Assembly: GCA_000934665.2 (NCBI GenBank)
Contig: JYFJ02002090.1
Coordinates: 1-63,465 of the forward strand
Direction of reading: 5' to 3'
Origin: Catajapyx aquilonaris
Taxonomy: Eukaryota
DNA length: 63,465 bases
Shown piece after piece: positions 22,001 through 50,900 of this stretch; the first letter of the stretch is position 1, and the number at the start of each line of letters is the position of its first letter. Below the pieces are notes generated by a model that saw nothing but the letters and a program-made list of their open reading frames with translations, did no database searches and had not been told where the DNA came from. The position numbers were made by a program, and so were the translations under genes.

Positions 22001-23898
22001 AGCGCCCCTCACCGCCTGATGGCCCACTCCCTAGCCTCTGCCCCTGCCACCCCAAAGCAGAATTACATCTCACCAATTCTGGACCATAGTGGGGCCAGGA
22101 AGAGGCAGGACATAGACTGCGACTATGCCCTAGAGAGGTAAGTCTAGGTTTGTGGCCACGTGTTGAACTGTAATTTTAATGATTGTGGTCTTTCAGCAAA
22201 AGGAGGAAGGCGGAGAAGGTGGGAAAGGGGCTGCGACACTTTTCCATGAAGGTGTGCGAGAAAGTACAGCGCAAGGGAACCACCTCGTACAATGAGGTGG
22301 CTGATGAGCTGGTGGCAGAGTTCACCAATGCTGCAGTTCCCATGTCCACTGCTGATCAGGTGTGCAGTTGTACAGATTACTTCTCATTGTTTCATACTGG
22401 CATTACCCAGGCATTGCTCCTGTTATGAGTTTTCTGTTGTACTTACACTCATTGTGAGTTGCCAATTGAATGTAGTACATAGAACTTATGCCTTATAACA
22501 TCCTCCTAACATGGGGATCTGCAAGTCTAATAATTGTAAGTGAGGTATACATCAAGCTGTAATCCATGATTTAACCACTTGCTGTCTTGCTCCAGCAATA
22601 TGATCAGAAGAATATCCGAAGGCGCGTGTATGACGCTTTGAATGTTCTGATGGCCATGAACATAATCTCCAAGGAGAAGAAGGAGATTAAGTGGCTGGGC
22701 TTGCCGGCCAACTCTCTCCAAGAGTGCCAGAACCTGGAGAAGGAGAAAGTGAAGCGGATGGAGAGGATACGGCAAAAGAACCAGCAGCTGCACGAACTCA
22801 TCCTACAACAAATCGCCTTCAAGAACCTGGTGGAGAGGAACCAGAAGCAGGAGCAGAGGGGCCTGTCTGCCGCACACAGCAGCATTCAGCTGCCCTTTGT
22901 TGTTGTCAATACCAACAAGAAGACAGTCATTGACTGCAGCATTTCCAAAGACAAGTGAGTAATATAGGGGAAAGGGAGTTGCTTGTCCATGTGGAGCCTA
23001 TAACCTGCTGACTTATTTTTTGCAGGATGGAGTACCTGTTTAAATTTGACCACACGTTTGAAGTTCATGATGATATTGAAGTTCTGAAACGGATGGGCCT
23101 CGCTATGGGTATGAGTGTTGTGGTGCTTTTGCTTCATTTCTTCATTGATTGTGCAATTATATATTACAGGATTGGAGAAGGGTCAATGCTCGGAGGAGGA
23201 CAAAGAGAGGGCTAAGGCCATGGTCCCAAGATCTCTGGACAAATACATCAATCGTGAGGAACCAATTAGTTGATACAAAGCAATACCTTCAATGTGGATC
23301 ATAGAGGCCGATTTTGTGCGGACCTTAAATAATGAATTCCACAGGCTTTTATGAGGGAATGAATACATGGCAATGTGTCATTACCTGCCATTAATTTCCA
23401 TTGAAAAATACAGACATTACTCTGCATGCACTGGAATTGATTGCCTTCTGCAGCTAGGTGGTGATATTGGTGTAAATGTCCAAGGGCTGTAAACTCTTTC
23501 GCCCTCATTTCAGTCACAGCATGTCAATGCCTGAATACCAAAGTTTTTCTTTCTCTCTGCATGTTGTGAACAGAAAGGTCCAGCCAGAGCATTTAAAGTT
23601 GCTAATTTGTTAATCTCTGTAAATGCCAGAGTTGGCAAGTGGCCAGTGGGAGCCCCAGCTGAACATCAAGTTGGAAGAAGACTCTGAAATCTCAGTGGAC
23701 GACCAGGCCGAGGATGACACAGAAGAGATGGAGGAGGAAGGCAATTCACAGCAGGCCGGAACGGCCAGCCTCTCCCGAGATTCGGGGATGTCCTCTTACC
23801 CTGACCAGTACGGAGTCGAGACTGGCTCTCCCTCGTCCAGCTGTGGTGACTTCAGTGATAACGAATCTGACTTTTCTGAGGATGTGGAGGTCAACTGA
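13076..23898 (+). CDS. Dp: Transcription factor Dp (E2F dimerisation partner), ~497 aa, 9 coding exons
   Basis: Exons 13076-13136, 13239-13460, 21709-21818, 21995-22137, 22197-22359, 22596-22954, 23026-23108, 23170-23253, 23630-23898; all GT-AG, phases consistent, total 1494 nt. Motifs [38 protein letters not shown] (DEF box), LPFVVVNT...IDCSIS, acidic tail. Confidence 0.93.
15699..16624. mobile_element. Mariner-derived fold-back element: two inverted copies of a mariner 3' end
   Basis: TA|CGAGGAGTGATCAAAAAGTAAGG ... CCTTACTTTTTGATCACTCCTCG|TA; arms ~15699-16123 and 16201-16624 nearly identical; carries transposase C-terminal remnant FLHDNVRP...[21 protein letters not shown]. Confidence 0.93.
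18610..18768. mobile_element. Degenerate Tc1/mariner-type MITE
   Basis: TA|CAGGGTGA ... TCACCCTA|TA; short, imperfect TIR only. Confidence 0.4.
19883..20378. mobile_element. Non-autonomous DNA transposon with ~125-bp imperfect TIRs, Kolobok-like
   Basis: TTAA|AGGGACACTCCACTCAAAA ... TTTTGAGTGGAGTGTCCCT|TGAA; purine-purine terminus with TTAA-type target site. Confidence 0.75.
21014..21447 (+). ncRNA. Candidate intronic structured RNA of unknown class
   Basis: Nested complementary segments forming a long rod with many G-U pairs on the + strand; AGAACA (H-box-like) 21341-21346 and ACA 21398-21400; T5 run at 21443-21447. Confidence 0.5.
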
Positions 23899-25725: not shown

Positions 25726-28700
25726 ATGAAGCTGCTGTCCTACCCGCTGTGGATCTTCATTTACCTGGTGTTCTTCGGCATTGGGGTGTACCTGTACATA
25801 CTGTCCATCCAGTCATGGAGGCAGAACCGCATGAGGCTCCTGCCTGGGAGCAGCCGATGGGGCATGGGAAGTGGGGGGGCCAGCAGCGGGTCTGTTGGAG
25901 GTGGCAGGGCAGGGAAGGGGCAGCCGGCCAGGGGCAGGCTGCACTTTTCTGGCCCGCAGAATGGAGGGGAGTTGGATGAGCTGAACCTGGGGAACTACAG
26001 TGCTGATGTGCCGCTGGACACAGCCAAGAAGATCCTCAGGCACAAGATGCAGGTCATCACTGAGTTCAGAAGAGCCATACTGGACTGGAAAAGTGAGTTG
26101 CATGCCTCATAAACCAAGTGGTTGGCTGCAGCCACGTGTCCCTAAGGTGTTCCAGCAGCCTTCCAGACCAACTACAATGTACCGTACCGGCCCCTCATCC
26201 GACCAAAGAAAGCGTCTGCAAAGGAGGTCCTCTGCGCCATGAAGAACTCTGTGCACCTGCACACCCTGAGCCCCAACGACTGCCCGTTCTTGGAAGAGCA
26301 CCAGCAGGATCTGATGCCAAAAACTGACATCTTCCAGGGACAGTCCTTTAGAACCTGTGCAGTGGTGTCTAGCAGTGGTTCACTCTATAAGTCTGGCTTG
26401 GGAAAGGAAATTGGTGAGTTATCGCAGAATTTACGTTCATGTAGGCTGTGCATTGATCTTGCGTGTTTCTGCTTTGTGGTAGTGAGAATAACTGACACTT
26501 GTAAGAACAGCACATGCTCAGTGGGAATACTTACTCAACCAATGCAGCCCAACCATTACCCAAATATATTTTCAGACCATTTTGGACTAGCCCAGAGGCT
26601 GGAGTGTGTGATTGATTGTAGAATAAGTAGCTGAACCTTGCTATTCATTATTGTTACAATGGCTTTAATAATTTGTAGCAATGATAAATTGCTCACTGTT
26701 TACCATTAATCACACTGCAGCCTAAGATGGTGAGGGTTATTAACTTAATAAGCAAAGAGCTTCAAGATGTCATTTATTCAAATCTGACAGTAACCTCTGA
26801 TTTGGTTCTTCTGATTACTCGTTGCAGTCCTGTAACAGAAATGAATTTTATATGAAGTTATTGCATATTAACGTTTGTAAACTTATGGCAGTGAAACCAA
26901 TCTGTATGTAATGCATCCTGAATACAGAGGGAACTCGTCAGTTACGGAACTTATGTTTGATCCTGCCATTAGATTTTCACTGCATTTGTCGCATTGAATT
27001 TGAATGCAGAACCGTTTTGTGGAATAAATAGATTTCACTGTATTATTGAAGCTCACATTAGCTATCAGGCGATTCATGCAGTCCACTACAAAGTGTGCCT
27101 TGCTGCACTCGGGAAAATCATAGGTGTCTTCAGACCTTTTTCCTGTAAGAGAGTTTATTTTTGTGATTTATGGTGTTACCATTCACAGGATCAAGAAGGA
27201 AAATAATTTCCTCACCACTAGCCACACATTGCTCTGCCAATGAAGTCAAAAATATACCAGATTCAGAATTCACTTCTGTAAAGACTTTGTTCATGAAATC
27301 TTGTGGTTCAATCCAACCGTCATTGACATCCTGAAATATTGCAATGGGTGAAATAAAACAACGAGATGTTATGAGCATTGGCGTTTGTCACTTACCACAT
27401 TCAGTGCTTCAAGAATGCAGTTATTGCGACACTGGTAAATGTAAAATCATTTGATAAGGAAATGTACCAAATGAACCTTGTTGTTGCATGAATGGGAGAG
27501 TTAACTTACATGATTTGAAACCTGATCTCGTCGACATTGTTCTTCAGCAATCTGTGATTCTTCTGTTTGCGGTGGTAATCTGCATTTTTCCTCTATCTAA
27601 AATTATTTTATTTCACACAAATGATATTTCCCTATGAAACAGACAGACAGCAATGCAAGAGACCCCAGTCAATTGATGAAGTATGCTTACAAATGTGGCA
27701 CACATAAATAAGCAATGTTCAGTGTGATACTGTACTTAAGTATGTAAAACAAAAACAATTTGGCAAAAGCCTAAAATAATTGTAGCATGATGTTAGCCTG
27801 TCACCAGATATATTGTCTGAAATTGCTTGTAACGTTAATGCTACGTATCTTAAATAATACTTTAGCAAAAAAGAATAAAAAATTAATGATAGTTGGGGAA
27901 TACTTGCCTGCTCAGCTACAGTTAAGGCCAATATGGCCACGAAGGCAAGAAGTACTTTCATTGCCATGGAATTGCATCATGTAGCAGGGGGACACTTGTT
28001 TTATACCAGGTGCATTTTTATTTTTTTTTGGTATTGAGTTCCTGCCGCATGTACCAGGAAGTGGTAGTGACTGTTGCAGAAGATACAGAGTGTCACTCAG
28101 GACACAAGTGACTTTTGACGAGATTGAAGTGCTAATGTGTGAGGTACTGTAGATTGAATGCATAACACATACATCCGTTATGCATGCAAGGAAAGATAAT
28201 GATAGCTTGTTTTGCCAAATGTTAATCAGAAAGTGGTGCATAAACAATGACAATCACCACCACCACCACCATCACTACTTATTTTCACTTATGATAACGC
28301 TCTCCCTTGGTTGTAGATGCCCATGAAGTGGTGGTCCGTTTCAACGATGCCCCTACAGAGGGTTATGTGGAGGATGTGGGCAATAAGACAACTCTTCGCA
28401 TTGTGAACTCACAGGTGGTTTCACTTCCTGAGTTTAACTTCCTTGAGTCTCCGCTCTGGCAAGATGTGGCCCTCCTAGCTTGGGATCCAAATGTTTATGA
28501 TGGAACCATGAAAGAGGTAGTCTCCATTCGTTGAAGTGTGTTTGTATGGGCAAGGAACATTGGTCTGCTATCTTGTCACAGTGGTTCCAACGCCCTGACT
28601 TCGACTTGTTCACCCCATACTTTGAGCGCAGGAGCAAGGAGCCTGAGCAGCCCTTCCACCTGCTCCACCCCAATTCTCTTTGGACACTGTGGGACTTTCT

Positions 28701-29087
28701 GCAGGCCTACACACCTGCCAGGATATTGGGCAACCCACCCTCCTCAGGATTCCTAGGTGAGAGGGAAATGCTGGCTGTTCATACCAACTAACTGGGTCTA
28801 TTTATGAATATTTCCAGTAAGTCAGTGTTCTCTGTTGTCTTCCAGGCATGGCTCTGATGCTACAGCATTGCAGAAAGGTGGATATGTACGAGTTCATCCC
28901 CTCCCTTCGCTTGAGCCCAGTGTGCCACTACTACAGCGAGCAGGAAGATTCAGGATGCACCTTTGGCCATTGGCATCCTCTAGCTGCTGAGAAACTCTTG
29001 GCTCTGTCTCTCAATGCAGCGTCTGACTACGAGGTATTTGTGCAGGGCGTGCTACACATGTCAGGATTAAACTCCATCTCTTGTTGA
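25726..29087 (+). CDS. SiaT: Beta-galactoside alpha-2,6-sialyltransferase (ST6Gal/SiaT, GT29), ~413 aa, 5 coding exons
   Basis: Exons 25726-26092, 26156-26413 (acceptor could be 26147 or 26159), 28317-28516, 28582-28756, 28846-29087. N-terminal TM anchor; sialylmotif L CAVVSSSGSL...IDAHEVVVRFNDAPT...DVGNKTTLR, S PPSSGFLGMALMLQHC, III CHYY, VS WHPLAAEK. Confidence 0.92.
26815..27961 (-). CDS. Secreted 8-Cys OBP-like protein, copy A (~130 aa), nested antisense in SiaT intron 2
   Basis: Exons 27961-27908 (GC donor; alternative ATG at 27967), 27596-27510, 27431-27396, 27330-27216, 27142-27057, 26829-26815. MKVLLAFVAILALTVAEQ IEEKCRLPPQTEESQIAEEQCRRDQVSNH CRNNCILEALNV DVNDGWIEPQDFMNKVFTEVNSESGIFLTSLAEQCVAS GKRSEDTYDFPECSKAHFVVDCMNRLIAN DCNE*. 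TATAAAA 28005-27999; AATAAA 26778-26773. Confidence 0.82.
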
Positions 29088-30210
29088 CTTGAAATGCTCT
29101 TCCCTAGTTTACACATTTACGAAGCTCATTCCAATACACATCACTCTTAAGTCTTAATACACTAGCAACACCCATTCCTGGGAGTTGTTTAGCAAATGAC
29201 ATAGGAATTTTGTTACCAGGAGTTGTTGTTAGGAGGTGGTTTTTTAATTGACTATGAATTTATGCAGTTATTATTGTGGAAATAAATGATGCAAGTTGGA
29301 AGATCCTTTTTGAGACTCAAAATGTGTGCTGTTTTTTTTGCATTCAATTTTCCTCACAACCACCAGCAATTTCATTTCATGTAGAATTACTGTAGTATTG
29401 CAGTGTAGGATTATGGTAGAACTAAGAAAACCCTCGCTCTGCTCGTATTTCCCAAGCCTAGTGGTAGAATGTTAATTATTTTCTTTACAAGAAAACATTT
29501 ACTTTTTTGATTTTTATAATTATGCATTTTATTGTTGGCTGATGAGAATATTGCTCGATTTTTATTTATGTTGTTTGCATGGTTTTTTTTATAGTTATCA
29601 TTGGCTGGCCTAGAAGAATGACAGAGCTTCACTTTTTACTGCTGATCTGAATCCATGGCAGAAGTCAGGTGTGACGGGAACTTTTGCCAGGCAAGCTGGC
29701 AGCCTCAGTTGTTGATGATACCCAACTGGTAAGTAAGGTTTGCCTTAAGCTGGGTGCACACCAGCTACACTGGGTATGGACTTTCCGTTCTGTTTGTTTT
29801 GTAATCTCCCAAATCTTGATTAAACGTTCAGATGGTACTTCACTCTCATTTTGGAAGGATTGTATCGTGTGTGCCTGGCGTAGCTGATGTGCACCGAGCA
29901 TGAGTCATTGAGCCATTACAGCATGAGACAGGATTTTTCATTCTTCTGCTAAGTGCCTTGCATATTTAATTTTACATTATTAATGCTCATGCAATACATG
30001 ACATGAAAAGGTAATACTAAGAAATTGTCTCAAAACAGATAAATGAAGTGTTTTGAACTCACGGTCAGTAACTATGCCTTTGCAGCATTTCTTTATTTAG
30101 TAATTTTAAAGTAACTTGGGAACATGTACTGTCAACTTATGTTACTCCACCAAAGCCAGACTTGAATAGTGGGAGGCCAAAAACTTTAAAGTTGAGTTGT
30201 GTTTTCTGTC

Positions 30211-31081
30211 CTACTTTCTTCTCTTTGCAAATTCATTTTCTATTTCTTCAGCAAAGTCATCACATTCCTAGAGAAAATATCATAATTATGCTCAGTTAGA
30301 AACAATTAAGGCTTAATACTTTTGTATGGTGGTCCAGTAGTGTTGCCACTGGCCAGTCAAGCAGGCATTATTACTTTGTACTTACATCTGGCAGCAGCGT
30401 AACAATGCAGCCAATGACGTAGTTGATTTTATCACAGTCATTGTGATCAGCCTGTTGTTGAATTTCTTTTCCTGTCATTACCAAAGGATAATGTATAAAT
30501 GCTACTGTGAACATGGGAATAAGCAATAAACAATAAGAGAATATTCTCACCACTCTCAACACAATACTCTGCAAAACTACCAAACATGTCATTTGCATCT
30601 TCATAATCTTCCACACTATCCACAGGAAATATTATGTCCACTGCATTTTGCGATAATATCCATCCATCATCAGTAAGCTAAATGTTTTAAAAAACAGTAG
30701 CTGTAGTAGACGTAATGAATCACTTAAGTAAATCACTTGTGCAGCACATACTATGTTTAATTCTTCAGCGATGCATCTTCCTATGCACTGAGGTTAAAAG
30801 AAAAGCATTGCAATAATTCATAATGAAAGGAACATCTGTGAATATTTAAAAATACTTCAACCTCTGCTGGATACACATCAGCACATTTTTGCATTGCATT
30901 TTCCAGTTCTGGGGAAGGCTCAGAAGGTAGTTTGCAGTATTCTGGCTGAAAGTTTTTTTTGTACATGAGTAATTTGTCAGTTAATACTGTACATGTAAGC
31001 TATTGATAAAATGCTATGGGTACTGACCTGTACTGCAGCAGTAGAAGCCAAGAGTGTCAGGAGAGCAAAGATGATTGCCAT
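30211..31081 (-). CDS. Secreted 8-Cys OBP-like protein, copy B (~149 aa)
   Basis: Exons 31081-31028 (alternative ATG 31090), 30945-30856, 30787-30752, 30677-30551, 30471-30386, 30267-30211. MAIIFALLTLLASTAAVQ PEYCKLPSEPSPELENAMQKCADVYPAEVE CIGRCIAEELNI LTDDGWILSQNAVDIIFPVDSVEDYEDANDMFGSFAEYCVES GKEIQQQADHNDCDKINYVIGCIVTLLPD ECDDFAEEIENEFAKRRK*. TATAAAA 31138-31132. Confidence 0.85.
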
Positions 31082-32558
31082 GGCTTTCATCCAGTATTAC
31101 ACAGGATGCCTAAAGAGGTGCCATTCAGTAATTTTATACCCAGAATTAATCAAAATGTGGCAGGAAGTTTCCTACTGATAGTTGTTCATGGGGACAAACA
31201 ATATCACGTAGAGTAAGTTCAAGGCTGAAAAAATCATGCTGATTTGGTTTTGCAATATTATCACAAAAGGTCAAATTTTGAATCCGGTACAGTATCACAT
31301 TTTCAGCCTGCTCTCATTAACGTGCTGCAGGGATATGGTTTTATCTTGCCTTGTCCTTTTACTGTGGTTCACTGCCTGATTAACTGGTTTAAAAAATTCC
31401 AACGCAATGTTAACTATTCTACTTGCTACAACAAGGGTCAAAATGAAACATGGGATGCTTTCTCTATGGTGTCCCAGATGATGATTCAGGAGATTTCTGG
31501 AAGTCAGTTATTTTCAGCAGAATTTGTCTTGCTCACAGAAGTTTTTTTTTCCTGCATTAAGTAGCTCAAAGGACCAGTGTAACAACATTAATTTTTTGTG
31601 ACTTTGAAGAAAATACAGGCATACACAGAGCAAAGATGTCAAAGCAGGCACAGGCCACATAAGGATGTATATTTTTGGTGTAGATTTGGGTGATGGGAGA
31701 CATGCATGACTCAAATATGTAGCTACATGGTAGAGAATGGTTCCCATAAGTTTACGAGAGAGTACCCTGCTGTATTATTCTTCCCAGCTGAGACAAGGTA
31801 GCAAAGGTGTGCTATTGGATGCAGAGGCTTCTTTACATGAATAAGGCAGGTATCATGTTATATTTTGGGCTAATTTGAGGAGGGGTAATTATTTAAAAAC
31901 CTGCTGGCATGTTATTATCCACATGGAAGGTACAAATCCGTATTCAAATCTCAATGCCATGTGTGCACTTTGTGTGTGTATTCAAATTCTTACTAATGAA
32001 GTAATGTCTCCTCATTTTTAAAATTTTGAAATGGGTATGAATTGGTATGAATGAAACCAAAGCATGTTGCTTTGTTGAACTATCCATTTTATTGCTGCAC
32101 AACTCTTTTGCAATGCAATTGGAGTTGACATATTTCTGTGATTATTCAACACGTCTCAGTGTGTCATGACAGAACTCCACAGCTTCAAAACTGAGGCACC
32201 TCTTAACTTCGAGATCTGATAATTTCAGGACAGGCTGGGTTAACAGCTGACTAACCAATAGTATTCATAAGAAAGAATGTCTTTTCTTAAGGTTACATGG
32301 GCAACTAACAATAATAGGTAGAATATGCATCATGCAAAATTAGTAACATTTTGACCAGATTCCCAAAATAATTAGTAATGCATAGTAATGCTGTGCCATT
32401 GAATCATAGTTTTCACTACCATTGATGATGATAGTAGTAGTAGTAGTAGTAGATAGTAGTAGTGAAAAGTATGGTGAGTCTTTATTTCATTGAAGAAGCT
32501 ACTTTTGAAGCCATGTGTGTATGGGGAAGGTTAGTAGTTATCTTTTAGTTTAGTCTGA

Positions 32559-33382
32559 TTACTTCTTCCTCTTTTGGAGCTCCTCCTCTGCAGAGTCATC
32601 AAAATCACTACATTCCTGAAATGAAAAATTGTTAGGTGAACTCTCAGTTACCATTAGGTGCATATCATACCTCTGGAAGAAGCAGAGCAATACATCCCAT
32701 CACATAGTTAACCCTGTCACAGTCGCCAAAGTTAAGTACCTCATCAATTTCCCTTCCTGCAAGTTAATTGAACTTGTGAGTTAGTAATGCATTGTAACAG
32801 CCTTGTAATTCTCATGGAAGTAAGTGAAGCTATTTAGCAACTGTTCTCACCTTTCTCAACGCATAGCTCTGCAAGTGCAGTGAAATATCCCTTGGACACT
32901 TCATATTCTTCTCCAACAAAGATGGTATCCATGAGGGCACTGGGTACTATCCAGCCATCGGCATCAGTCTGGAGAAAAATTTCTATGTGATTAAGTGGAG
33001 GCAAATTAATTTAGAGGTGGTATTTCATTTACCACATCCAATTCTTTTGTCAGGCAGTGTCCAAAACACTAGTTGAGGAAATAAAGAAAAAATATAAGGC
33101 ATTTAAAAAGATTATGCATCACTTATTTAATTTTTGCTTTAAATGATGAATACATCACCGACCTCCTCTGGAACTCCGGGTTCTGCGCAAGTGTCTGCAG
33201 CCTGCTCCACCTCTTGTGTATCGTCGGGCAATTTGCAGTACTCAGGCTGGAATTTTTTTAAACAATGTTAAGGTTCAATTGGATAAGCAGAATTAATAAA
33301 AAAATCTATGACTATGTATAGGAATTCGCAATACTTTCTCTCAATATTTTCTCTTGATTTGAGTTAACACAACTGCACTGAA

Positions 33383-33456
<74 letters not shown>

Positions 33457-33923
33457 CCTGGTTAGTGCTTTCACCCCTCTTGGGGTATATCGCATGGACC
33501 TTTATTGTACCATTATTTTGTACATTGTGCAGTGGAACCTTTGTTTTGAAACGCCCGGGCCCTCGGGCAGGATGACAGGCGGGAATGTGCAAGGTGCAGT
33601 GCAATGTCGTTGCTGTGGTCATTTTGTGAACTCCCCCGGGTGGATTGTCTTAATGGAGATACCACCCGAGACGTAGCCTGAGATGATCCCAAACTCTGCA
33701 CGAGATGAAGGGGGTAACCCTGGGCTGGGATCGAACCCATGCCCTTAACGTCCGTGGGTGCATACGTTACTGCAGCGCCACTCCGTCCCCATTCAATGAA
33801 TTAATTAGGTATTTTGTTGGGAGAAAAATAACTTAGCAAATATTATGTATGATCCAGACTCATACTGACCTGCTGTGCTGCAGCAAGGGCCAAAATTGCA
33901 AAGAAAATGAATGTGACTGCCAT
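32559..33923 (-). CDS. Secreted 8-Cys OBP-like protein, copy C (~144 aa)
   Basis: Exons 33923-33870, 33246-33163, 33068-33033, 32968-32851, 32756-32671, 32615-32559. MAVTFIFFAILALAAAQQ PEYCKLPDDTQEVEQAADTCAEPGVPEE CFGHCLTKELDV TDADGWIVPSALMDTIFVGEEYEVSKGYFTALAELCVEK GREIDEVLNFGDCDRVNYVMGCIALLLPE ECSDFDDSAEEELQKRKK*. TATAAAA 33979-33973. Confidence 0.87.
33380..33790 (-). mobile_element. tRNA-derived SINE (family 1) with (TAT)n/(TTTA)n tail in intron 1 of copy C
   Basis: Minus head GGGGACGGAGTGGCGCTGCAGT...GGTTCGATCCC; body closely matches the copy at ~63035-63404; simple-repeat tail 33380-33456. Confidence 0.82.
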
Positions 33924-35980
33924 CTCAGAGCTTGTTATTGGAATGAACTGTAGGATGACCACTCACAGTTTCTTTTATATTTGCACAAATATTATCACAT
34001 CCACTCATACTGCTAAATTTTTTTGTTACAAATTGTGATATGTACAGAGTAATATCATAACTATCACCTAGGCCAGGCTGTTTTATTTATCGTGTTTGAC
34101 GGGGGATAAATCCTGACATATCAACCAGGAAGTTGGTAAATTATTTAGAGTTTAAAAAATATTCTTCCAATGATTGCAGAAGGCTGAAAAGTTCACCTTC
34201 ACCTCCTTTTCCCCATACACCCACCTTCCAGAGACCCACCATACACCCCCCTTCCTGTCCCTGTTATTGTTGTTTTATGAGTGTTGCCCATTACTTTCTG
34301 TGCATTGATTATTATGCATTCGTTTTCTCATTTGCTTGCAAGACAGTTCAGGTCTATAATAGCTGACCTGTGTATTGTCAAGGTCATCTCATATCATGAC
34401 TTGTGATCAGGCTCCTGGGGGATACACAATGGATTCGTGGCACACAGCCTTCAGTCGGGAGGTGGATTAGGTCTGCAGCTGCCTTTGTATGACCCATTCT
34501 CTGTCTCAAGTACTGTGGTCAGAGGAAGAAGAGATACAGTCAGCCATAGCTTCATCTACTGGCAGCGTCACTCAAGCCAGGAGGTCTTTGCTAGGTAGGT
34601 GATAGACCAATACATTTCGTGCTGTTAGTTGTTGATAGGGACAAATAATATCACGTAGAGTAAGTGCAAGGCTTAAAATATCACACTGATTTGGTTTTGC
34701 GTTAGCAATATATTCACAACAGGTCACATTTTGAAACTGGTACAGTATCACATTTTCAGCCTGCTCTCATTAACATGCTGCAGGGACAGTGTTTTATCTC
34801 ACCGTGTCCTTTTTCTGTGGTTCACTGCTTGAGTAAATGGTTTTAAAAAATAATTCCAATGCAATGTTAACTACACTGCTTGCTACAACAAGGGTCAAAA
34901 TGAAACATGGAATATGCTTTTTGCATGGTGTTCCAGATGTCCATTTGAGAGATTTCTGGAAGTCATTTATTTTCAGCAGAATTTGTCTTGCTGTTTTTTT
35001 TCTGCATTAAGACAATCTCAGAGGTCAGAGCCATCCGTTAAATATCTGGAAATGACTCGTGTAACAATGCATATTTATTGTGACTTTGAGGAAAGCGCAG
35101 ATATACACCGAACAAAGCTTTCAAAGCAGGCACAGATCACATAAGGATGTATATTTTTGGTGTAGATTTTGGTGACTGAGGCATTGGTGACTCAAATAAA
35201 TATATACATGGTAGAGAATGGTTCCCATAAGTTTAGGAGTACCCTAATTTATTATTCTTCCCAACTGAGGCAGGGTAGCAAAGGTATAAGGCAGATAATT
35301 ATCATGTTATGTATTTTGCTAATTTTAGGAGGGGCAATTATTTAAAACAGCTGGCATGGTAGTATTCGCAGTGAAGGGATGAGACCATGTTCAAATCTCA
35401 ATACCATATGTATGCACTTTGCATTTCGAAGTCTTACTCAAGTAATGAAGTCATGTCTCCTCATTTTTAATTTTGAAATAGGTTAAGAGGTTAAGAGATA
35501 ATAAAAATTAAAGCCAAACATGTTGCTTTATTGAACTCTACATTTTATTGCTACACAATTCTTTTGCTTGGGTCACAATTATGCTAACATTCAACATATG
35601 TCTCAGTGTGTCATGACCAAACTCCACAGAACTGAGGCACCTCTGAACTTTGAGATCTGATCATTTTCAGAACATGCAGGGTTAACAGCTGACTAACCAA
35701 CAGTACACATAGTAAAGAAAGAATGGCTTTTCTGACGGTTACATGGGCAACTTACAATAACATACATCAGGCAAAATTTCGTGAATTTTGGCCAGATTCC
35801 CAAAATAATGTGTAATTTTATGAATGGGGAGTGCTATGCCATTGAATCATACTTTTAACTAACATTTATGATGATAGTACCGGAGTGAAAAGTATGAGGC
35901 TTCATTTCATTGCAGAAGCTAATTTTGAAGCCATGGACAAATGGTGAAAGTTAGTTATCCGATCTTTTTGTTTAGTCTGA

Positions 35981-36846
35981 TTACTTCTTCCTCTTTTGGA
36001 GCTCCTCCTCTGCAGAGTCAGCAAAATCGCTACATTCCTGAAATGAAAAATGGTTAGTTGAACTCTTGGTTACCATTAGGTGCATATTATCATACCTCTG
36101 GAAGAAGCAGCGCAATACATCCTATCAAGTAGTTAATCTTGTCACAGTCGTCAAAGTTAAGTACCTCATCAATTTCCCTTCCTGCAAGTTAATTGAACTT
36201 GTGAGTTAGTAATGCATAACAGCCTTGTAATTCTCATGAAAATAAGTGAAGGTATTTAGCAACTGTTCTCACCTTTCTCTATGCATTGCTCTGTAAGTGC
36301 ATTGAAATATCCATTGGACGCTTCATATTCTTCTCCAACAAAGAAGGTATCCACGAGGGCACTGGGTACTATCCAGCCATCGGCATCAGTCTGGAGAAAA
36401 TATTACATGTGATTAATTTGAGGCAAATTAATTTATAGACAGTCGTTGCACTTACCAGATCTAATTCTTCAGTCATGCAGTGTCCGAGGCACTAGTTGAG
36501 GAAAGAAAAAAAGACAAGGGATTTAAAAAGATTAACGCATAATTTATTTAATTTTTGCTTTAAATGATGAATACATCACCAACCTCCTCTGGAACTCCGG
36601 ATTCTGTGCAAGTTTCTGCAGCCTGCTCCACCTCTTGTGGTACATCTTCAGGAAATTTGCAGTACTCTGGCTGGAGATTTTTAAAACAATTATTAAGGTT
36701 CAATTGGATGAATGGAATTTAATTAAATAGTCTGCGATTATGTATAGGAATTCACAATACGTAATCAGATCTTTGAAATGAAAAATTATGGATTGCTAGG
36801 TATGCTTGCAATGAATTAATTAGTTATTTGGGTGTGTGTGTGTGTG

Positions 36847-36896
<50 letters not shown>

Positions 36897-36987
36897 AACT
36901 TAGCAAATGTGTATGACCCAGACTCATACTGACCTGCTGTGCTGCAGCAAGGGCCAAAATTGCAAAGAAAATGAAGGTGACTGCCAT
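35981..36987 (-). CDS. Secreted 8-Cys OBP-like protein, copy D (~145 aa)
   Basis: Exons 36987-36934, 36670-36584, 36491-36456, 36390-36273, 36181-36096, 36037-35981. MAVTFIFFAILALAAAQQ PEYCKFPEDVPQEVEQAAETCTESGVPEE CLGHCMTEELDL TDADGWIVPSALVDTFFVGEEYEASNGYFNALTEQCIEK GREIDEVLNFDDCDKINYLIGCIALLLPE ECSDFADSAEEELQKRKK*. TATAAAA 37043-37037. Confidence 0.87.
36833..36892 (+). repeat. (TG)n(GA)n microsatellite in intron 1 of copy D
   Basis: About 22 GA units preceded by TG units; absent from the paralogous intron of copy C. Confidence 0.9.
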
Positions 36988-37669
36988 CTCTGAGCTTATT
37001 ATTGGAATGAACTGTAGGATGACCACCCTCAGTTTCTTTTATATTTGCAAAAATATTATCACATACACCCATGCCTCTACATTTTTTGTTACAAATTGTG
37101 ATGTGGTTAGTAATATCATGACTATCACCTATGCCAGGCCTATTTATTTATCTGGTTTGACGGGATGAATCCTGACATATCAACCAGGAAGTAGGTAAAT
37201 TATTTATAGTTTTAAAAATCTTCTTCCCTCTTGTTTTAATGGGATTGTGTGGGAGAGAAAGAAAACTACAAAAAAAAAATGGTTTGCACAGTTTTGGCAT
37301 GAAAAATGTACAACGTGTGCACTGCCCAAGTCCACAATTAAGAAGAATGTAGGGGAAGAAATTATTGAGTGTTTACCTCAGTAAGCAGTTGAAAGAGATG
37401 CAAAAGACAGCCTAATTTATTGAGGTGCATTTTACTTTGTCTCGGCGATTTTATTTCATGTAATAGTGACTGGAACAAACCAAACCAGCCCTACACAACA
37501 GTGGCGTCGCTAGGCAGGTGCGGGGGGTGCGGACCGCACCGGGTGCCACCCTCAAAGGGGGTGACACCCAAGTGATGTGTGAAATTTTTTTGGAACCCTT
37601 GAGAGAATGTATGCTTTCTTTGCGGCTTCCACACATCGATGGAAACTACGGAAATAATTTAAAGGTGTA

Positions 37670-38995: not shown

Positions 38996-39119
38996 ATTTA
39001 CTTCAGATATTCCTGTGTGAATTCCATTTTAACGATTTATTTGAAATAATTTTATACAGGAAATTGACACTTACAGCTAATATATAAGCTGCTGTTTTAG
39101 TAGCTGCTTACTGAATATA

Positions 39120-39705
39120 AGGGACACCATAATTGAAATCGCGGTATCTTTGAAACCGAAGCAGCACAAATGGCCATAGCACCAATGAGAGCAAACGGGG
39201 CACAAACGATTGGCCTAGTTGAAATTTTGAAATTCGCTAAACTAGTGCTGTGGTGACCAGAGTTAACTATTGGCCCCAACACAATATTGACGTCGCTGTA
39301 TCTCAAGAACGGTTGCAGCACAAACGCCCATCTTCGGGCACAAATCAGCACAAACGAAGCACAAACGATTCCCACCGTTGAAATCTTGAAATTCGCTTTA
39401 TTTCAAAAGCGTTATTTTGGCCCAACCAAATTAAAAGTGCTGCAGCGTTGAAACCAAGCCAGCACAAACGCCCATATTCTAGCACAAATCAGCACAAACG
39501 TAGCACAAACGATTGGCACCGTTGAAATTTCGAAATTCGAAAGTGGTTGGGCTACCGTTAAACTGGCCCAACCAAATTAAAAGTGCTGCAGCGTTGAAAC
39601 CAAGCCAGCACAAACGCCCATATTCTAGCACAAATCAGCACAAACGTAGCACAAACGATTCCCCTTGTTCATATTTCGAAATTCGAAAGTGGTTGTGCCA
39701 GTTTA
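39120..39705. repeat. Tandem repeat, ~146-150 bp unit, 4 copies
   Basis: Units start ~39121, 39272, 39419, 39565; the last two are near-identical; internal AGCACAAA sub-repeats. Confidence 0.85.
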
Positions 39706-40367
39706 ACGGACATTTGGCTTTTGGAGTTCCATACCTGCGCCCTGCTCCATTGTTGCCGACATCTCCGCGGGACGTTCTCCTGCCTGGCTCTTAATTTATG
39801 TTTTCAGCAACAACTCATGGATGTGTATACACTACGCATATGATTTATGAGATGATAGACCCACCAATTTGTCCAATATTTGTATAAATTACTTCAAAAA
39901 TTGAATTTTCATGTTCCCGCATTTTTGCCACAACTGTCATGGCCGCCAACAGAACATTAGAACATAATTTTTTAAAGCCACATTAATATCCACATCATCT
40001 CTTGAATATGAATAGTTGCATCGATAATTAGATAGTTAATTAATAAATAAGTTAATAATTATAATGTTCTCTTGGCATCATTGGCAGCGGCTGTTTGGAA
40101 TTCAAGATGGCCGCCATCACGAAGAGGGAATTTCCAAGCTAATTAGTGTTGATTAGACGTGTGATTACACTGGGAGGAGTGCAGGTAACTACAGTTGGGC
40201 TGCAGGACATGCTCTGTACACTCACAGAGAGTAAGTGGGGGCTCAGTTGAGAAATTATAGAAGTAGGCCTCTGTTTAACTTAACATGTCATGAGGAACGT
40301 TCCTTCCAAATGCAGCTTATCCACTATTTGGGATTAGCCTTGACCTGATTAGGTGACCTGCAGGGCC

Positions 40368-41351
40368 ATGCCATTGTTGGAAGTGAAGAGGGAACCTGAG
40401 GAAGAAGATGGGAGCGTGTCGGTGGAGGAGACCCTGCAGTTAACAATGAAGGAGGAGACCTCTTCATGCTTCGATGGTGAGGATTCCACTCCACAAGAGG
40501 ACACTCCGGGTGAGATCAAGCAGGAGGCAGCCGAAGAGGAGGAAGAGATGGTGGCGGACACATCCAGTGCGGCTGAAGAAGATGACCCATTGGAAAAAAA
40601 TACATTCGAGTGCAGTAAATGCCAGAGATTATTTGGCACTCTGCATGAATTGGAAATCCACATGTTAACTCTTAGTGAAAATAATTGTTGCCATATTTGC
40701 CAGAAGAAATTGTTCAGTGGAAGTAGTTTGAAAAATCATGTGCGAATTCATACTGGCGATAGACCATATTATCGTTGTGAGTTGTGTCCGAAAATGTATC
40801 GTCAGTCAGCTAGTTTGAAAGCTCACGTGCAAAGTCATACGGGAGAGAGTTCATTTCAGTGTGACGTGTGCTGGAAAAAGTTTAGTCAATCGAGATGTTT
40901 GAAAACGCATTTGCTGATTCATACGGGAGAGAGACCGTTTAAATGTGAGGTCTGCCAGAACAAATTTCTTAATTCAAGTAGTTTGAAAAAACACATGCTA
41001 GTTCATACCGGAGAAAAACCATTCGTGTGTGACGTGTGCCAGAAAAGATTTAGTGAGTCAGGTAGTTTGAAAGCTCACTTGCGAATTCATACGGGAGAAA
41101 AACCATACGTTTGTGAGGTGTGCCAGAAGAAATTTTGTCAATCAAGTAGTTTGAAAACACACATGCGAAGTCATACGGGAGAGAGACCATTTAATTGTGA
41201 GATGTGCCGGAAAGCATTTCGTCATGCGAATGGTTTGAAAGTTCACATGCAAAGTCATACGGGAGATAAACCGTTTCAATGTGACCTATGCCAGAAAACA
41301 TTTCGTGATTCATATGCTTTGAAAGTTCACATGCGAATTCATACAGGATAG
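40368..41351 (+). CDS. C2H2 zinc-finger protein, 327 aa (acidic N-terminus, 1 degenerate + 8 complete fingers)
   Basis: GCCATG at 40368 after a CTGCAG acceptor; tandem CxxC-x12-HxxxH with TGE(K/R)P linkers; VKRE/MKEE/IKQE SUMO-consensus motifs; probable non-coding exon ending CAG|GTAACT ~40184. Confidence 0.9.
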   Translation: MPLLEVKREPEEEDGSVSVEETLQLTMKEETSSCFDGEDSTPQEDTPGEIKQEAAEEEEEMVADTSSAAEEDDPLEKNTFECSKCQRLFGTLHELEIHMLTLSENNCCHICQKKLFSGSSLKNHVRIHTGDRPYYRCELCPKMYRQSASLKAHVQSHTGESSFQCDVCWKKFSQSRCLKTHLLIHTGERPFKCEVCQNKFLNSSSLKKHMLVHTGEKPFVCDVCQKRFSESGSLKAHLRIHTGEKPYVCEVCQKKFCQSSSLKTHMRSHTGERPFNCEMCRKAFRHANGLKVHMQSHTGDKPFQCDLCQKTFRDSYALKVHMRIHTG

Positions 41352-44921: not shown

Positions 44922-47900
44922 TCATCTTCTGAGGCTGGCGTCGAAGTGCGAGATGGCTGCCAGAAGACATGCTGCAAGCAGCCAGCATGAGGATGCGGCG
45001 GTGACAAAGGCACTGTTGTTCTCGGAATGGTCGCTTCCAGAGTGGGCCTCGGGTGGGGGCCTTTGGGCCCTTGTGAAATCAGGATCTCCATTCTGATGGT
45101 TCCCTATTCATGGCGACGCAGGAGAAGGGGGACGAAAATGGGAAAGTGCTTTACAGGTCGCCCACAGAATTTCGGAGATGGAAGATCCAGCAAGCGAGTG
45201 AAACGCAAAAGTAAAAGTAACCAAGCCCAAAGCAAAAGGAGGTAAGCCATGCAATTGGAAGTGGTCAGCAGGAATAATATTGAACCCTTGAGCTTCTCTC
45301 TGCAGGAATGTTACTAGAGCCAGCAAGGAAGCATGAATATTGAAGCTTGAGAAGACAGGTTTGCCAGATGTGTGTGATGCTGACTTGTGAGTTTCGGTAC
45401 TGGAGTGACTATATACGTAGAAGCATGCAATATAGACACACGACTGGATGGAGCTTCATCAAGGGGCTAAACTCATGTGTGGTGAGTGACTGAGGTCTGT
45501 TGAGGAGTCTCTGTCTCTGTTTTCATACATTCCAAGAGTGAGGTTGGCGTCACTGATACTGTTCCCATCACTCTCGAGGCTGGTTCCTGGCTGCGTAGTC
45601 TGCAACCGACAATGGGAACACGCCTCAGACCCACAACTCAAGTCCTTGTGTGTGATAAACATTATTCGTCTACTCTCTACTCATTGGGTCTAATCCTATG
45701 AGGCCACAATCAAGAAAGAGGTACAGGGCAGACTCAAGGAGTTTTTGTTTCTGATAGGTTTCCCCTGTGTTGTCTTTCAGCAAGTTTAAATTTTTCATGT
45801 CTAACCCACCCCAACATATGAGTAGTTTGCTTGCTCATTTTTATGGGTTGTAAAGTGAAGGAAGGAAGATTCAGTTCGTGTCATTGATTTGTTAAGAATT
45901 TAGTAATCAAGCATAGGTTATTTCAAAAGGACGCCTAAAAATAACATGTTCAAGGTTATTTTTGTTAGCAGTTTTAAATAAGCAGCATGTTGGCACAATG
46001 CATTGTGATTAGGGCGCTAAACTAAAAACACATTGTTAAAAACTTCACACTTCAAAAAAGCAAGCGAACGAAACTCACAGAAAGAGAATGGCCAGCCAAA
46101 AATACCTGCGTCCATTATAGAGTCGTCCACGTCATCCTCCATCTGTTGGCCATGGTGCTTCTCCTCCATGTTGCCGCTCTTTGCAAGACCAGAAGATATA
46201 CTCCTACATCCAAACCACCAGTATCCAGCAGGTCGGGGGAATGCAGGGTTTGCTTCCTCAACCTGGAATAACACCCGAACCGTTAGTCTCATTTGGGTGG
46301 TGATCAAAATATTGGCTCCTTATCCTAAAATCTGCAGGCACTTACAGCAAAGTTCCTGTCATTGAATCGCCAGTATTTCCCACCCTTGAAGAAGTACGTG
46401 TATCCATTGGAGTATTGCAGTGCATCGTCAATATTGTTGGGGATGCCTTCCCAGTTCTTAATCTCCTTTGGATAGGTGCTCTTCACAGGTGGACGCTGGG
46501 TTGGGTCAAACCTCCAGAACTTTGATCCTGGCAAGCAACAAATACATTATTCATTGGGTGTATGTTATGCAACATGCAATAATTCTGGGCTGCGTAAATA
46601 AGCTGATTAATCAAAATCCTTCAGTCGAAATTCAGCTAACCTTTGAAAAAGTAAATCTTTCCATTTCCACTCCACACAAAAGCAGCATCAACATTGTCAG
46701 GTATCCCAGCAAATCCTTGGTGAATGGACTTTGGATACCCACTGTCCATCTTCATGTTCGTGAACCTCCAGTACTGAGACCCCTGTAAAAAGTTTCAGTT
46801 ACAACGCTGCTACCCCGACACATCACACCGGGTACTTACTTTGAAGAAGTAGGTACGGCCTTGTGACCAGCTGAAGGCGGCATCCAAGCTTCCAGGCAGT
46901 CCTGGAAACCGACTCGATATGAGCTGAGGATATCCTGCTGCAATGCCTTCCTCTGTGAGTTTCCAGAAATTGTTCCCTTTGAATGCATAGGTCTGCCCAT
47001 CACTCCCAACAGTCATAGCATCAATGGTGGCATCATTGCAGAGCTCGCTGTCTTCATCTGGCAGCTTCGGAGGTTTGGTGGTGGTCGTTGCCTGTCCACC
47101 AGACGGTCGCTTGGTAGACACCCCTGAGCTTCTCTTACCATACAGGCTCTGTATCCCTTTGACATCATCCTCATCGAGGACAAAGTTAGGTTCGTATCCC
47201 CGGTAGAACGGAGCCATTAGAGCTGAACGAACATCCGAATGGGACAGTCCCAAGGAGTGCCCAAACTCATGTGCTGCCACTTGGAAGAGGTTGGTGCCCC
47301 GGTAGGTATTGATACTCCATGACTCAGAATCATCAAAATGGGCATCACCTCCATACACAGGGAAGTAAGCATGGGCCAAGGTGCCTCCAGGTCCATCAAA
47401 GGGGTCGCCATCGCCATGCTCACCCTTCTCAAATCTAATTTCGATATGGACCCGACCAGACTTGCGAGGAACAAACTTGAGATCTGTGTATGTTGACCAC
47501 ACGTCGAAAGCCTTCTGTACTTCCACGTCCACATCTTTGTCCACAAGCCTTGCAGGGTACTTTGAGATCTTGTAGGTCAGCTCCTTTACTCGCCAGCGGG
47601 AACCTACAAACAATAAAATGATGAGTCACAAATTCCAGCCATACAATTTATGTGATATATGGATTATGCATAGCTGGGCTGGCACATCCACTCCAGGCTA
47701 TTTAAAGGTACCGAACAATGCCCCATGCCATTTATGGTGAAAGTAATGGAACTACAGGCATCATTTTAAAGCAACCCCCAAGTGTGACTCCGCAGGAGCT
47801 CAGGGAGCTACACTGTGCATCTGAGTGCACAAATTACCATAACGGCACCTGATATACAGCGAGTTGATTCAAACATATTCTTGCCTGTCACATCTCATTT

Positions 47901-50900
47901 TAAGCAAGCGGTTCCAGTATGCTTCCAAGATTTATTTTACAACCACTCACGACAACATCACATGCCAAGACTTTACGTTTCATCCTGTCACAGTGAACCT
48001 CACAATATTTGTCTCAGCTACAAGAAGTGAGTCCCAACTTATTGACAACCTTTTCAGGCAACTGACACACCAAAGTTTAAAAAGTCCCGGAAGTCCAACC
48101 AGCAATCGCTTGGCATTGTGTAAACCGCCAGTAAATACCTTGTTGTGCTAGAGCCCCCCATAACCACTCTCTGGCTTCCTCCGCCCAGAGAATCCATTTA
48201 GCAATTCAGATGATTCCTCGGCAAGGTCACTGCATAACCAAGCAAGCTTTTGTCCCTGCCCATCTCTTATGGCACGAGGGTCAAGAACTCCTTTGCATCT
48301 TTTTTTATTTTTTATTTTTTTGTGTGTGTATGCTATATCTTGGTTATGCTCAATATCAGAGCTCTCACTCCCGAATACAATTGGGACTGCTGAAAAAACC
48401 AGTTTCTTTGTGCAAGTGATCCGCCCACGGCTATTCGATCAACGGACGAAAACTCCGTCACCCCGCGGTAAATCCGCAAGTGACCGTGGCACCTGCCACT
48501 CAAAAACGTGTTTTCCTCTTGGCACACCGTCAGCCTCAAGTTACAGCCCCATAAAACACCCTAGAGTACAAAGACCCAAAAAACCGAATGGCTTACAACG
48601 AAACACAAGGAGCAGACTACATCAAAAGAGACGTGTGGGTGACACTGGTGAATATAAAGTTCATGGTCACAATATGCAACTGTTATGTTTTGTGTGGTGT
48701 CGCAATGCTGCTTATTGATGGCAATGCAGTCCCTTTTTCTTGTGTGTATCGAAAGCCCTTGGCCTTGACGTCTCTCAATAGATGGCTACAAGGGCAAGAT
48801 TTGAAGCTTTTGTTCCCCTTTACAACAAAGGGTAGCACCGGTGACAGAACTTGAAAGAGGTGGAGGAAGGGCTGGGCATCATCCCCTGCTGCATGCATTG
48901 CCTGCCCCTCCTCCACACGTCCTCTACCACCAACCACCAGCTCCAAAAGGGTTAATAGAGTCACTTCCTCAGTTTACCTTGGAGGGCGTATCTCTTCTTG
49001 CGAGCCTGCGTGCCAAAACCAACTTTATCTTTGACTCCGCACCGAGGTGTGTTCATCATTTTGACTGTCTCATCGTCCAGATCACCTGAAACAAGCAACA
49101 AACCATGATGGTGTTTGACCCCAGCAATTATATGCAAATTAGGGTTGCCTCCTTCCTCGTTGTGATCATGCAAATCACTCTCACCTGTTTGGTTGAGCCC
49201 CGCAAATGCTTGGAACTCCATAATGGCCTGGGTCAGGACCTTCCCTGAGATCAAGGCCGCTGAACTAGGATTTCTCGACTTTGGATCCATATATCCAAAC
49301 TGAGATAAATACATCTGCGAAAAAATGAATAAAATTATAATTTTTTAAAACAAAAATCCGCCAGGTCGTAAATCCCCATAGGTTTCCAAGGATTTTTGCA
49401 TTATTCTTTCGATTGGGACACAAGGCTGCTAAACTATTATGCAGCGTACAGAAGGTCGTAACTATTTGCGAAGACAATACTACTGCCGGTTTCGCTGCCA
49501 GCACCCCGAGCTAAACGATCATAATCCCGTTGTTTTGCATGCAAACATGAGTGTGTTTCCCAAAATCGGCTCAACAACCACTTGACCTCAAGAGGAGTCA
49601 TCCGCAACAGTGTCAATTGAGTATGACTCCTCTTGATTATAAGCTGCTGAAAAAGCTACTCCTTTTTTTTTTGCAACATTATTCTGGGCGCCCTGCCAAG
49701 AATCTTTGTTTGGGGCGATGTCCATCCTCATGTTTGAATCACATCATGCACTTTAGGGTCAAACCACACCCCTTCCTTGGGAGGAATGCCATTCGCGGTG
49801 GGCAACTCCTCGATGGTAACAGCAACATGAAAGAAAGTGTTGGGGGAGGACAGTGCCATACCAGTTCCGGTGAATCATTGGGTTGACTCAAAACGGAACG
49901 GCACGATCTTGACACCTCCCTGCAATATATGCACCTATACTCGTGAGAAGTTATTATCAGCTGATGAGTCGGCGTGGTCAAACATCCAGCTATTTTTTGA
50001 TCAGATGTCACTGCAGTATAAACCAACCATATTTTAATATGTGACTATGCACAAAAAAATATTCTCAGCCTCAAGCGAACTTACATAAGCTACCGGTGCA
50101 CACACAGCATTTCCTACTTTAATAACGTGGCTTCCACATACATATCGCGGTTGCAGTTACGCCTGTATGAAATCACAGCTGACGGTAGACCGCAATGTAA
50201 AATGAGCGTATAGGGATCGAACCGGTTCATAAGCCCCGAAGCTATAACCGAGTGAGTCATACAGGGTCACCCCGGTGATGCACCATCAGAAGCTCGAATA
50301 AAAAAAAAAAGAACTCAACATCCAGATCTCCCTATAGAAACTCCGGAGTATGTCGCCTTGTCGAATTACGTAACCTGCGGGAAAACGAACGAAGAGAAGT
50401 TGTAGTCACGACCTTCACCTTCCTGTCCCATAATAATAATAGGCGTTACGTACAGTGCCTGTCCGCTTCCTTATGCCGGATTCCAATAAACAGGACCACA
50501 TTGCAAGGACGTCACCTCCAATATTGATAGAGTTGACGTGCAAGCAATTTGAACTCCATATAAGCTGTACCTTCCCGGTACAACGAAGGACAATCCCACA
50601 CACTCTTAAGGAGGTGAACGAACCAATGACTAATTCGGCTGGCCTGTACTTGAATCCGGAGGGTTCCCCAAATCCGCCCACATACCCTTCCGGTGCATTG
50701 GATGACTCATACCTGCAGTACATATGGGTCAAAAAATGTGCAGCATACAAGTTTTGATATTTATTCCTTGAATTGCTGATGCCAGGAAGGGTTGTAAAAA
50801 TTGAGCAATGTTGTATCGAAGTGCTAGGTACGGATGACGTTATGTATGGGTTCTTTGTGAATTGCAATCTGGTGATGTCACGATGACAACCTGTTTCCAA

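Follow-up and report, generated by a model that had tools for sequence, protein, structure and literature searches.

Insect odorant-binding proteins (OBPs) are described as secreted, disulfide-locked helical bundles that solubilize hydrophobic ligands (PMC8961588, PMC8067015), and the classic members are given the six-cysteine pattern C1-X24-33-C2-X3-C3-X35-47-C4-X8-18-C5-X8-C6 (PMC5054612). Their origin is open; the reviews report a handful in springtails (seven sequences from two species), expressed sequence tag and database searches having yielded none for Diplura, for Protura or for crustaceans (PMC4145409), and a paper that notes OBPs in a bristletail reports none from 13 crustaceans (PMC5850775). 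Term searches of a dipluran genome paper (PMC6938034) and of a paper on early-hexapod chemoreceptors (PMC13388675) return no mention of OBPs. Chelicerate and myriapod OBP-like proteins, 21 of them in a centipede, are described as Minus-C-like proteins that lack C2 and C5 (PMC5381604, PMC5952958). Few OBP-fold proteins have so far been described outside the winged insects. Here we describe four paralogous genes, G1 to G4, on the minus strand of a 63,465-nucleotide stretch of Catajapyx aquilonaris DNA (positions 1-63,465 of contig JYFJ02002090.1, assembly GCA_000934665.2; hereafter the window). They are real genes encoding a divergent variant of this known family, and their function is what we infer from it.

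Four six-exon genes

The genes lie between positions 26815 and 36987, and each has six exons with intron phases 0,0,0,1,0. From upstream to downstream they are G4 (36987-36934, 36670-36584, 36491-36456, 36390-36273, 36181-36096 and 36037-35981; 145 amino acids), G3 (33923-33870, 33246-33163, 33068-33033, 32968-32851, 32756-32671 and 32615-32559; 144 amino acids), G2 (31081-31028, 30945-30862, 30787-30752, 30677-30551, 30471-30386 and 30267-30211; 147 amino acids) and G1 (27967 or 27961-27908, 27596-27510, 27431-27396, 27330-27216, 27142-27057 and 26829-26815; 132 amino acids). The first exon of G1 is 60 or 54 nt long according to which ATG is chosen, and its intron 1 is GC-AG; all remaining introns of the four genes are GT-AG. 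No reading frame contains a frameshift or an in-frame stop, and a TATAAAA box precedes each ATG, by 56 nt in G4 (37037-37043, minus strand), 56 in G3, 57 in G2 and 38 in G1. Spliced contigs, all from one run whose type and tissue are not on record and all unstranded, join 5 of the 20 introns, namely introns 2-5 of G2 (four of its five) and intron 5 of G4 (one of five). That run's contigs include no spliced one for G1 or G3, and the absence of contigs over G1 and the greater part of G3 says nothing about their expression. The open frames, the conserved intron phases, the TATA boxes and these junctions establish that the four genes are real. When the window was scanned on both strands for splice sites combined with motifs, the G1-G4 models and no others came back; the scan was built from the four genes themselves and so serves only as a specificity check.

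The original prediction, made from the sequence alone, thus had the architecture, the phases and the promoters right. It allowed exon 2 a length of up to 90 nt, but the real range is 84-87 nt, since a spliced contig fixes the G2 exon 2 donor at 30862 and that exon at 84 nt. Its DGWI motif is indeed present in exon 4 of all four genes, and each product has eight cysteines, spaced 16,8,3,42,15,8,8 in G4, 15,8,3,42,15,8,8 in G3, 16,7,3,45,15,8,8 in G2 and 15,8,3,41,15,8,8 in G1; only its second gap (8 or 9) needs correction, to 7-8, the value in G2 being 7. The N-termini are hydrophobic (Kyte-Doolittle 11-mer values of 2.9-3.3, a heuristic used without SignalP), which supports the view that the products are small secreted proteins, as also predicted. 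Aspartate and glutamate make up 20-26% of the domain, and G2-G4, unlike G1, carry an acidic tail with a basic patch at its C-terminal end.

G3 and G4 are a tandem duplicate with a unit of about 3.4 kb and 83% amino acid identity, and by sequence the duplication is recent. Their coding regions differ by 24 amino acids and one in-frame gap, and their noncoding DNA by five gaps in introns 2-5 and 24 gaps in 1.3 kb of 3' flank. The proportions of nonsynonymous (0.073) and synonymous (0.122) differences are not significantly different (p=0.14); for the older gene pairs dN/dS is 0.16-0.41, with dS near saturation, in a run that had G3 exon 2 one codon too long. Intron 1 is 623 nt long in G3 and 263 nt in G4, and that of G3 carries a high-copy repeat insert at 33470-33790, seen in a depth of about 600 with loose ends and in the intron lengths.

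A genome-wide family and its fold

Exon queries against the same genome gave 22, 13, 4, 4 and 46 matches, which merge to about 64 places on 22 contigs, a count from which one false match was dropped (contig C4897, no family gene on inspection) and to which two script-found genes were added, and in which some weak matches were not inspected and some places are possibly allelic. On these matches G1-G4 are ordinary members of a family of about 60 copies and not the stand-alone cluster first proposed; the lineage-specific expansion proposed with it is supported. Pfam recognizes only three of the places. Among 27 six-exon models built from fetched family DNA, 10 have C-X3-C, G1-G4 included, and 17 have C-X4-C, mostly together with C-X7-C. 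The latter form a large sister clade (contigs C5156, C2933, C6264, C2483, C1417 and others) that breaks both textbook OBP hallmarks, and in the tree G1-G4 group with this X4 clade at 92/91.

The evidence for the fold comes by way of paralogues elsewhere in the genome in which exons 3-5 are fused, which stand in for the spliced window proteins. These paralogues share flanking intron positions with the window genes, and in every test a fused-exon paralogue scored higher against a window protein than all 500 shuffles with the cysteines held fixed; by these comparisons the two groups are homologous. PF01395 (PBP_GOBP) matches four of five fused-exon paralogues and none of nine window exons scanned singly. 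One fused-exon paralogue folds at a predicted local distance difference test (pLDDT) score of 90 onto OBP helices 3-6, that is the C2-C6 core only, and the top 13 matches of a structural search with this model are all OBP-fold proteins, led by moth and cockroach PBP/GOBP (HarmPBP1 7vw8, BmorGOBP2 2wc6 and cockroach PBP 1ow4). In the ESM Atlas the fused exon gave leads under 0.9, with PF01395 in two of the three clusters shown, and exon 4 gave nothing; exon 2 had no match in the PDB. A single-sequence fold of the natural open frame running from exon 4 through the intron into exon 5 of a six-exon paralogue reached a pLDDT of only 52 and was not used. Given the modeled core, a PBP/GOBP fold for the family is highly probable, as originally predicted, and G1-G4 would have it through their homology to the fused-exon paralogues.

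OBP genes that encode two domains, have exons 3-5 fused and carry a proline after the last cysteine of domain 1 occur at 69000-87200 of contig C485 and on contig C9691. In one two-domain gene the signal peptide is followed by repeats of a short acidic exon, and the copy at about 71000-71300 of C485 looks frameshifted.

Outside this genome no homolog was confirmed among 716 candidates from an exon-4 alignment or 18 from a fused-exon alignment, the two matches of a full hidden Markov model scan were both repeat artifacts, and metagenome contigs gave none (0 of 265 pattern matches); the queries were short in every case, so that these negatives say little about true absence.

Position among OBP classes and possible roles

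If the first cysteine is taken as C1, the gaps are 24-25, 3, 41-45, 15 and 8, and all five fall within the classic ranges in all four genes, leaving one extra cysteine pair per protein. The 15-residue C4-C5 gap and the seemingly very short gap before CxxxC, both at first thought unusual, are thus ordinary by the published ranges (PMC5054612). We lean slightly toward the second N-terminal cysteine as C1. In that case helix 2 would be lost and the first cysteine, which is followed by xxP in all four genes, would clamp the C-terminus as in Plus-C proteins, a comparison that draws on the local motifs and cysteine pairing of that class; if C1 is instead the first cysteine, the second would pair with the extra C-terminal one.

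With the classic insect OBPs (PF01395) the family shares the signal peptide, the size, C2-X3-C3, C5-X8-C6, the C2-C6 core fold (in a paralogue), tandem clusters and the occurrence of single- and two-domain forms. The window proteins differ from them in two added cysteines, one 7-8 residues before C2 and one 8 after C6, in their six tiny exons, in the lack of a sequence match for those exons, and in having a sister clade in which the spacings are C2-X4-C3 and C5-X7-C6. The Plus-C OBPs, toward which the original prediction leaned, likewise have an extra N-terminal cysteine and one (C6a) exactly eight residues after C6, and the C3-C4 gap of 41-45 is also shared. However, the proline that follows C6a in Plus-C proteins is found in none of the four window genes and only 2 of the 27 six-exon models (it is present in the fused-exon genes viewed), C5-C6 is X8 rather than X9, C4-C5 is 15 rather than 17-33 in all four, and the proteins are much shorter, with 8 cysteines rather than 12; the C1a-c and C6b-c set of a protein with 10-12 cysteines is not there, C6b/c being absent, and membership is ruled out. 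The chelicerate and myriapod proteins are also divergent, secreted and OBP-folded, and have expanded lineage-specifically outside the winged insects, but the window proteins retain C2 and C5 and do not belong with them. Very probably, G1-G4 are a divergent variant within the OBP superfamily.

We think it likely that G1-G4 are secreted acidic OBP-superfamily proteins that act as soluble carriers of hydrophobic ligands. By analogy with established OBP biology, from which their ligand-solubilizing role is inferred, the carrying of small hydrophobic molecules is itself rather likely, and a chemosensory site of action is an even chance. Each protein, of about 13-15 kDa, would be a bundle of helices locked by disulfides, with the six standard cysteines and one added pair, the latter probably linking the N-terminal part of the chain to its C-terminus (a putative pairing). 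The standard OBP disulfides are C1-C3, C2-C5 and C4-C6, in a protein with a hydrophobic cavity. A central pocket would take up odorants, tastants, pheromones or lipids and carry them in an extracellular fluid, sensillum lymph or some other, and tandem birth-and-death duplication may have given the lineage-specific radiation to about 60 copies.

A non-sensory job for OBP-fold proteins of this kind, as products of cuticular, salivary, defensive or reproductive glands or of the hemolymph that carry lipids or bind other proteins in the manner of D7, Sol i 2 and THP12, is a less likely alternative. Such proteins are among the structural matches (4jd9, 2ygu, 1c3z and D7), the high acidity and the basic C-terminal patch of G2-G4 would suit it, and contigs of G2 and G4 turned up in a run whose tissue is not on record; however, the best structural matches are the moth and cockroach PBP/GOBP, and about 60 tandem copies alongside CSP and seven-transmembrane (7-TM) chemoreceptor-like arrays fit a chemosensory repertoire better. 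Nothing in the results points to venom. Three points favor the reading that the six-exon window genes are not OBPs: the Pfam and fold support comes from fused-exon paralogues and not from spliced window proteins, sequence identity is low, and the 17 models with CxxxxC and C-x7-C lack both hallmarks. That only the fused-exon genes are OBPs, and that the six-exon genes resemble them just in cysteine spacing, is nevertheless improbable in view of the shuffle scores, the common intron positions, the existence of a bridging gene and a six-exon member 10 kb from fused genes. Least probable are secreted calcium-binding proteins with an EF-hand-like DxDG loop (mineral handling), a reading we reject because none of 32 sequences fits the canonical 12-residue loop pattern and because Asp is missing at position 1 in the window copies and Glu/Asp at position 12 in G2-G4, even though the acidity is strong, the exon-4 profile weakly matches EF-hand proteins (E 0.02) and SCOPe is said to class the OBP fold as EF-hand-like (PMC8961588).

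Genomic neighbors and wider meaning

A sialyltransferase gene (GT29) occupies 25964-30267 on the plus strand, its spliced part present in a contig. G1 lies wholly antisense within its 1.9-kb intron 26413-28316, which a contig skips, a nesting absent from the original prediction. The 3' part is carried by a contig up to the boundary of the last exon of G2, and one contig terminates precisely at that exon's acceptor site; a tail-to-tail overlap of the two 3' ends (29593-30267) is probable, although unstranded contigs cannot separate the genes. One contig also splices out of the last sialyltransferase coding exon (29033-29595, plus strand), which swaps a 17-residue C-terminus ending in cysteine for eight different residues. 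A tandem repeat with a unit of about 145 nt in 3-4 copies and a 20-nt inverted repeat lies at 39100-39710. Other window genes, at 939-1775, 22575-22958, 40353-41351 and 46810-49344, are F-box/SPRY, DP transcription factor, C2H2 zinc-finger-like and MMP genes. The host lacks a close relative with annotation: identity of the MMP exon is 60-69% with insects and 63-65% with two decapods, and its tree places it outside the sampled winged insects, grouped with decapods and two further sequences with moderate support only (87/87). Elsewhere the genome has a CSP (OS-D) exon cluster with 15 matches on contig C1127 and others, long single-frame 7-TM chemoreceptor-like open reading frames, DUF1676 and a weak 7tm_6 match; the last two, like the MMP tree, are of limited weight for placing the host.

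No description of this eight-cysteine OBP type was found in the open-license literature available to us, and sequences like these may already have been published. The family could be a distinct ancient eight-cysteine type, a stripped-down Plus-C forerunner with helix 2 lost and a single N-to-C clamp, that reached at least 60 copies in a pancrustacean not belonging to the winged insects (most likely a non-insect hexapod, with a small chance of a crustacean), a range of animals for which published OBP counts are 0-5, and with its largest branch lacking the C2-X3-C3 and C5-X8-C6 hallmarks; we hold this to be possible but doubtful. If true, standard searches would miss the type, and the 'absences' of OBPs from lineages that branched early may be artifacts. 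Pfam's three of about 64 places illustrate how such families are hidden by micro-exons and by cysteine spacing that drifts, and this one offers test material for the ancestral disulfide pattern and for carrier expansion independent of odorant receptors.
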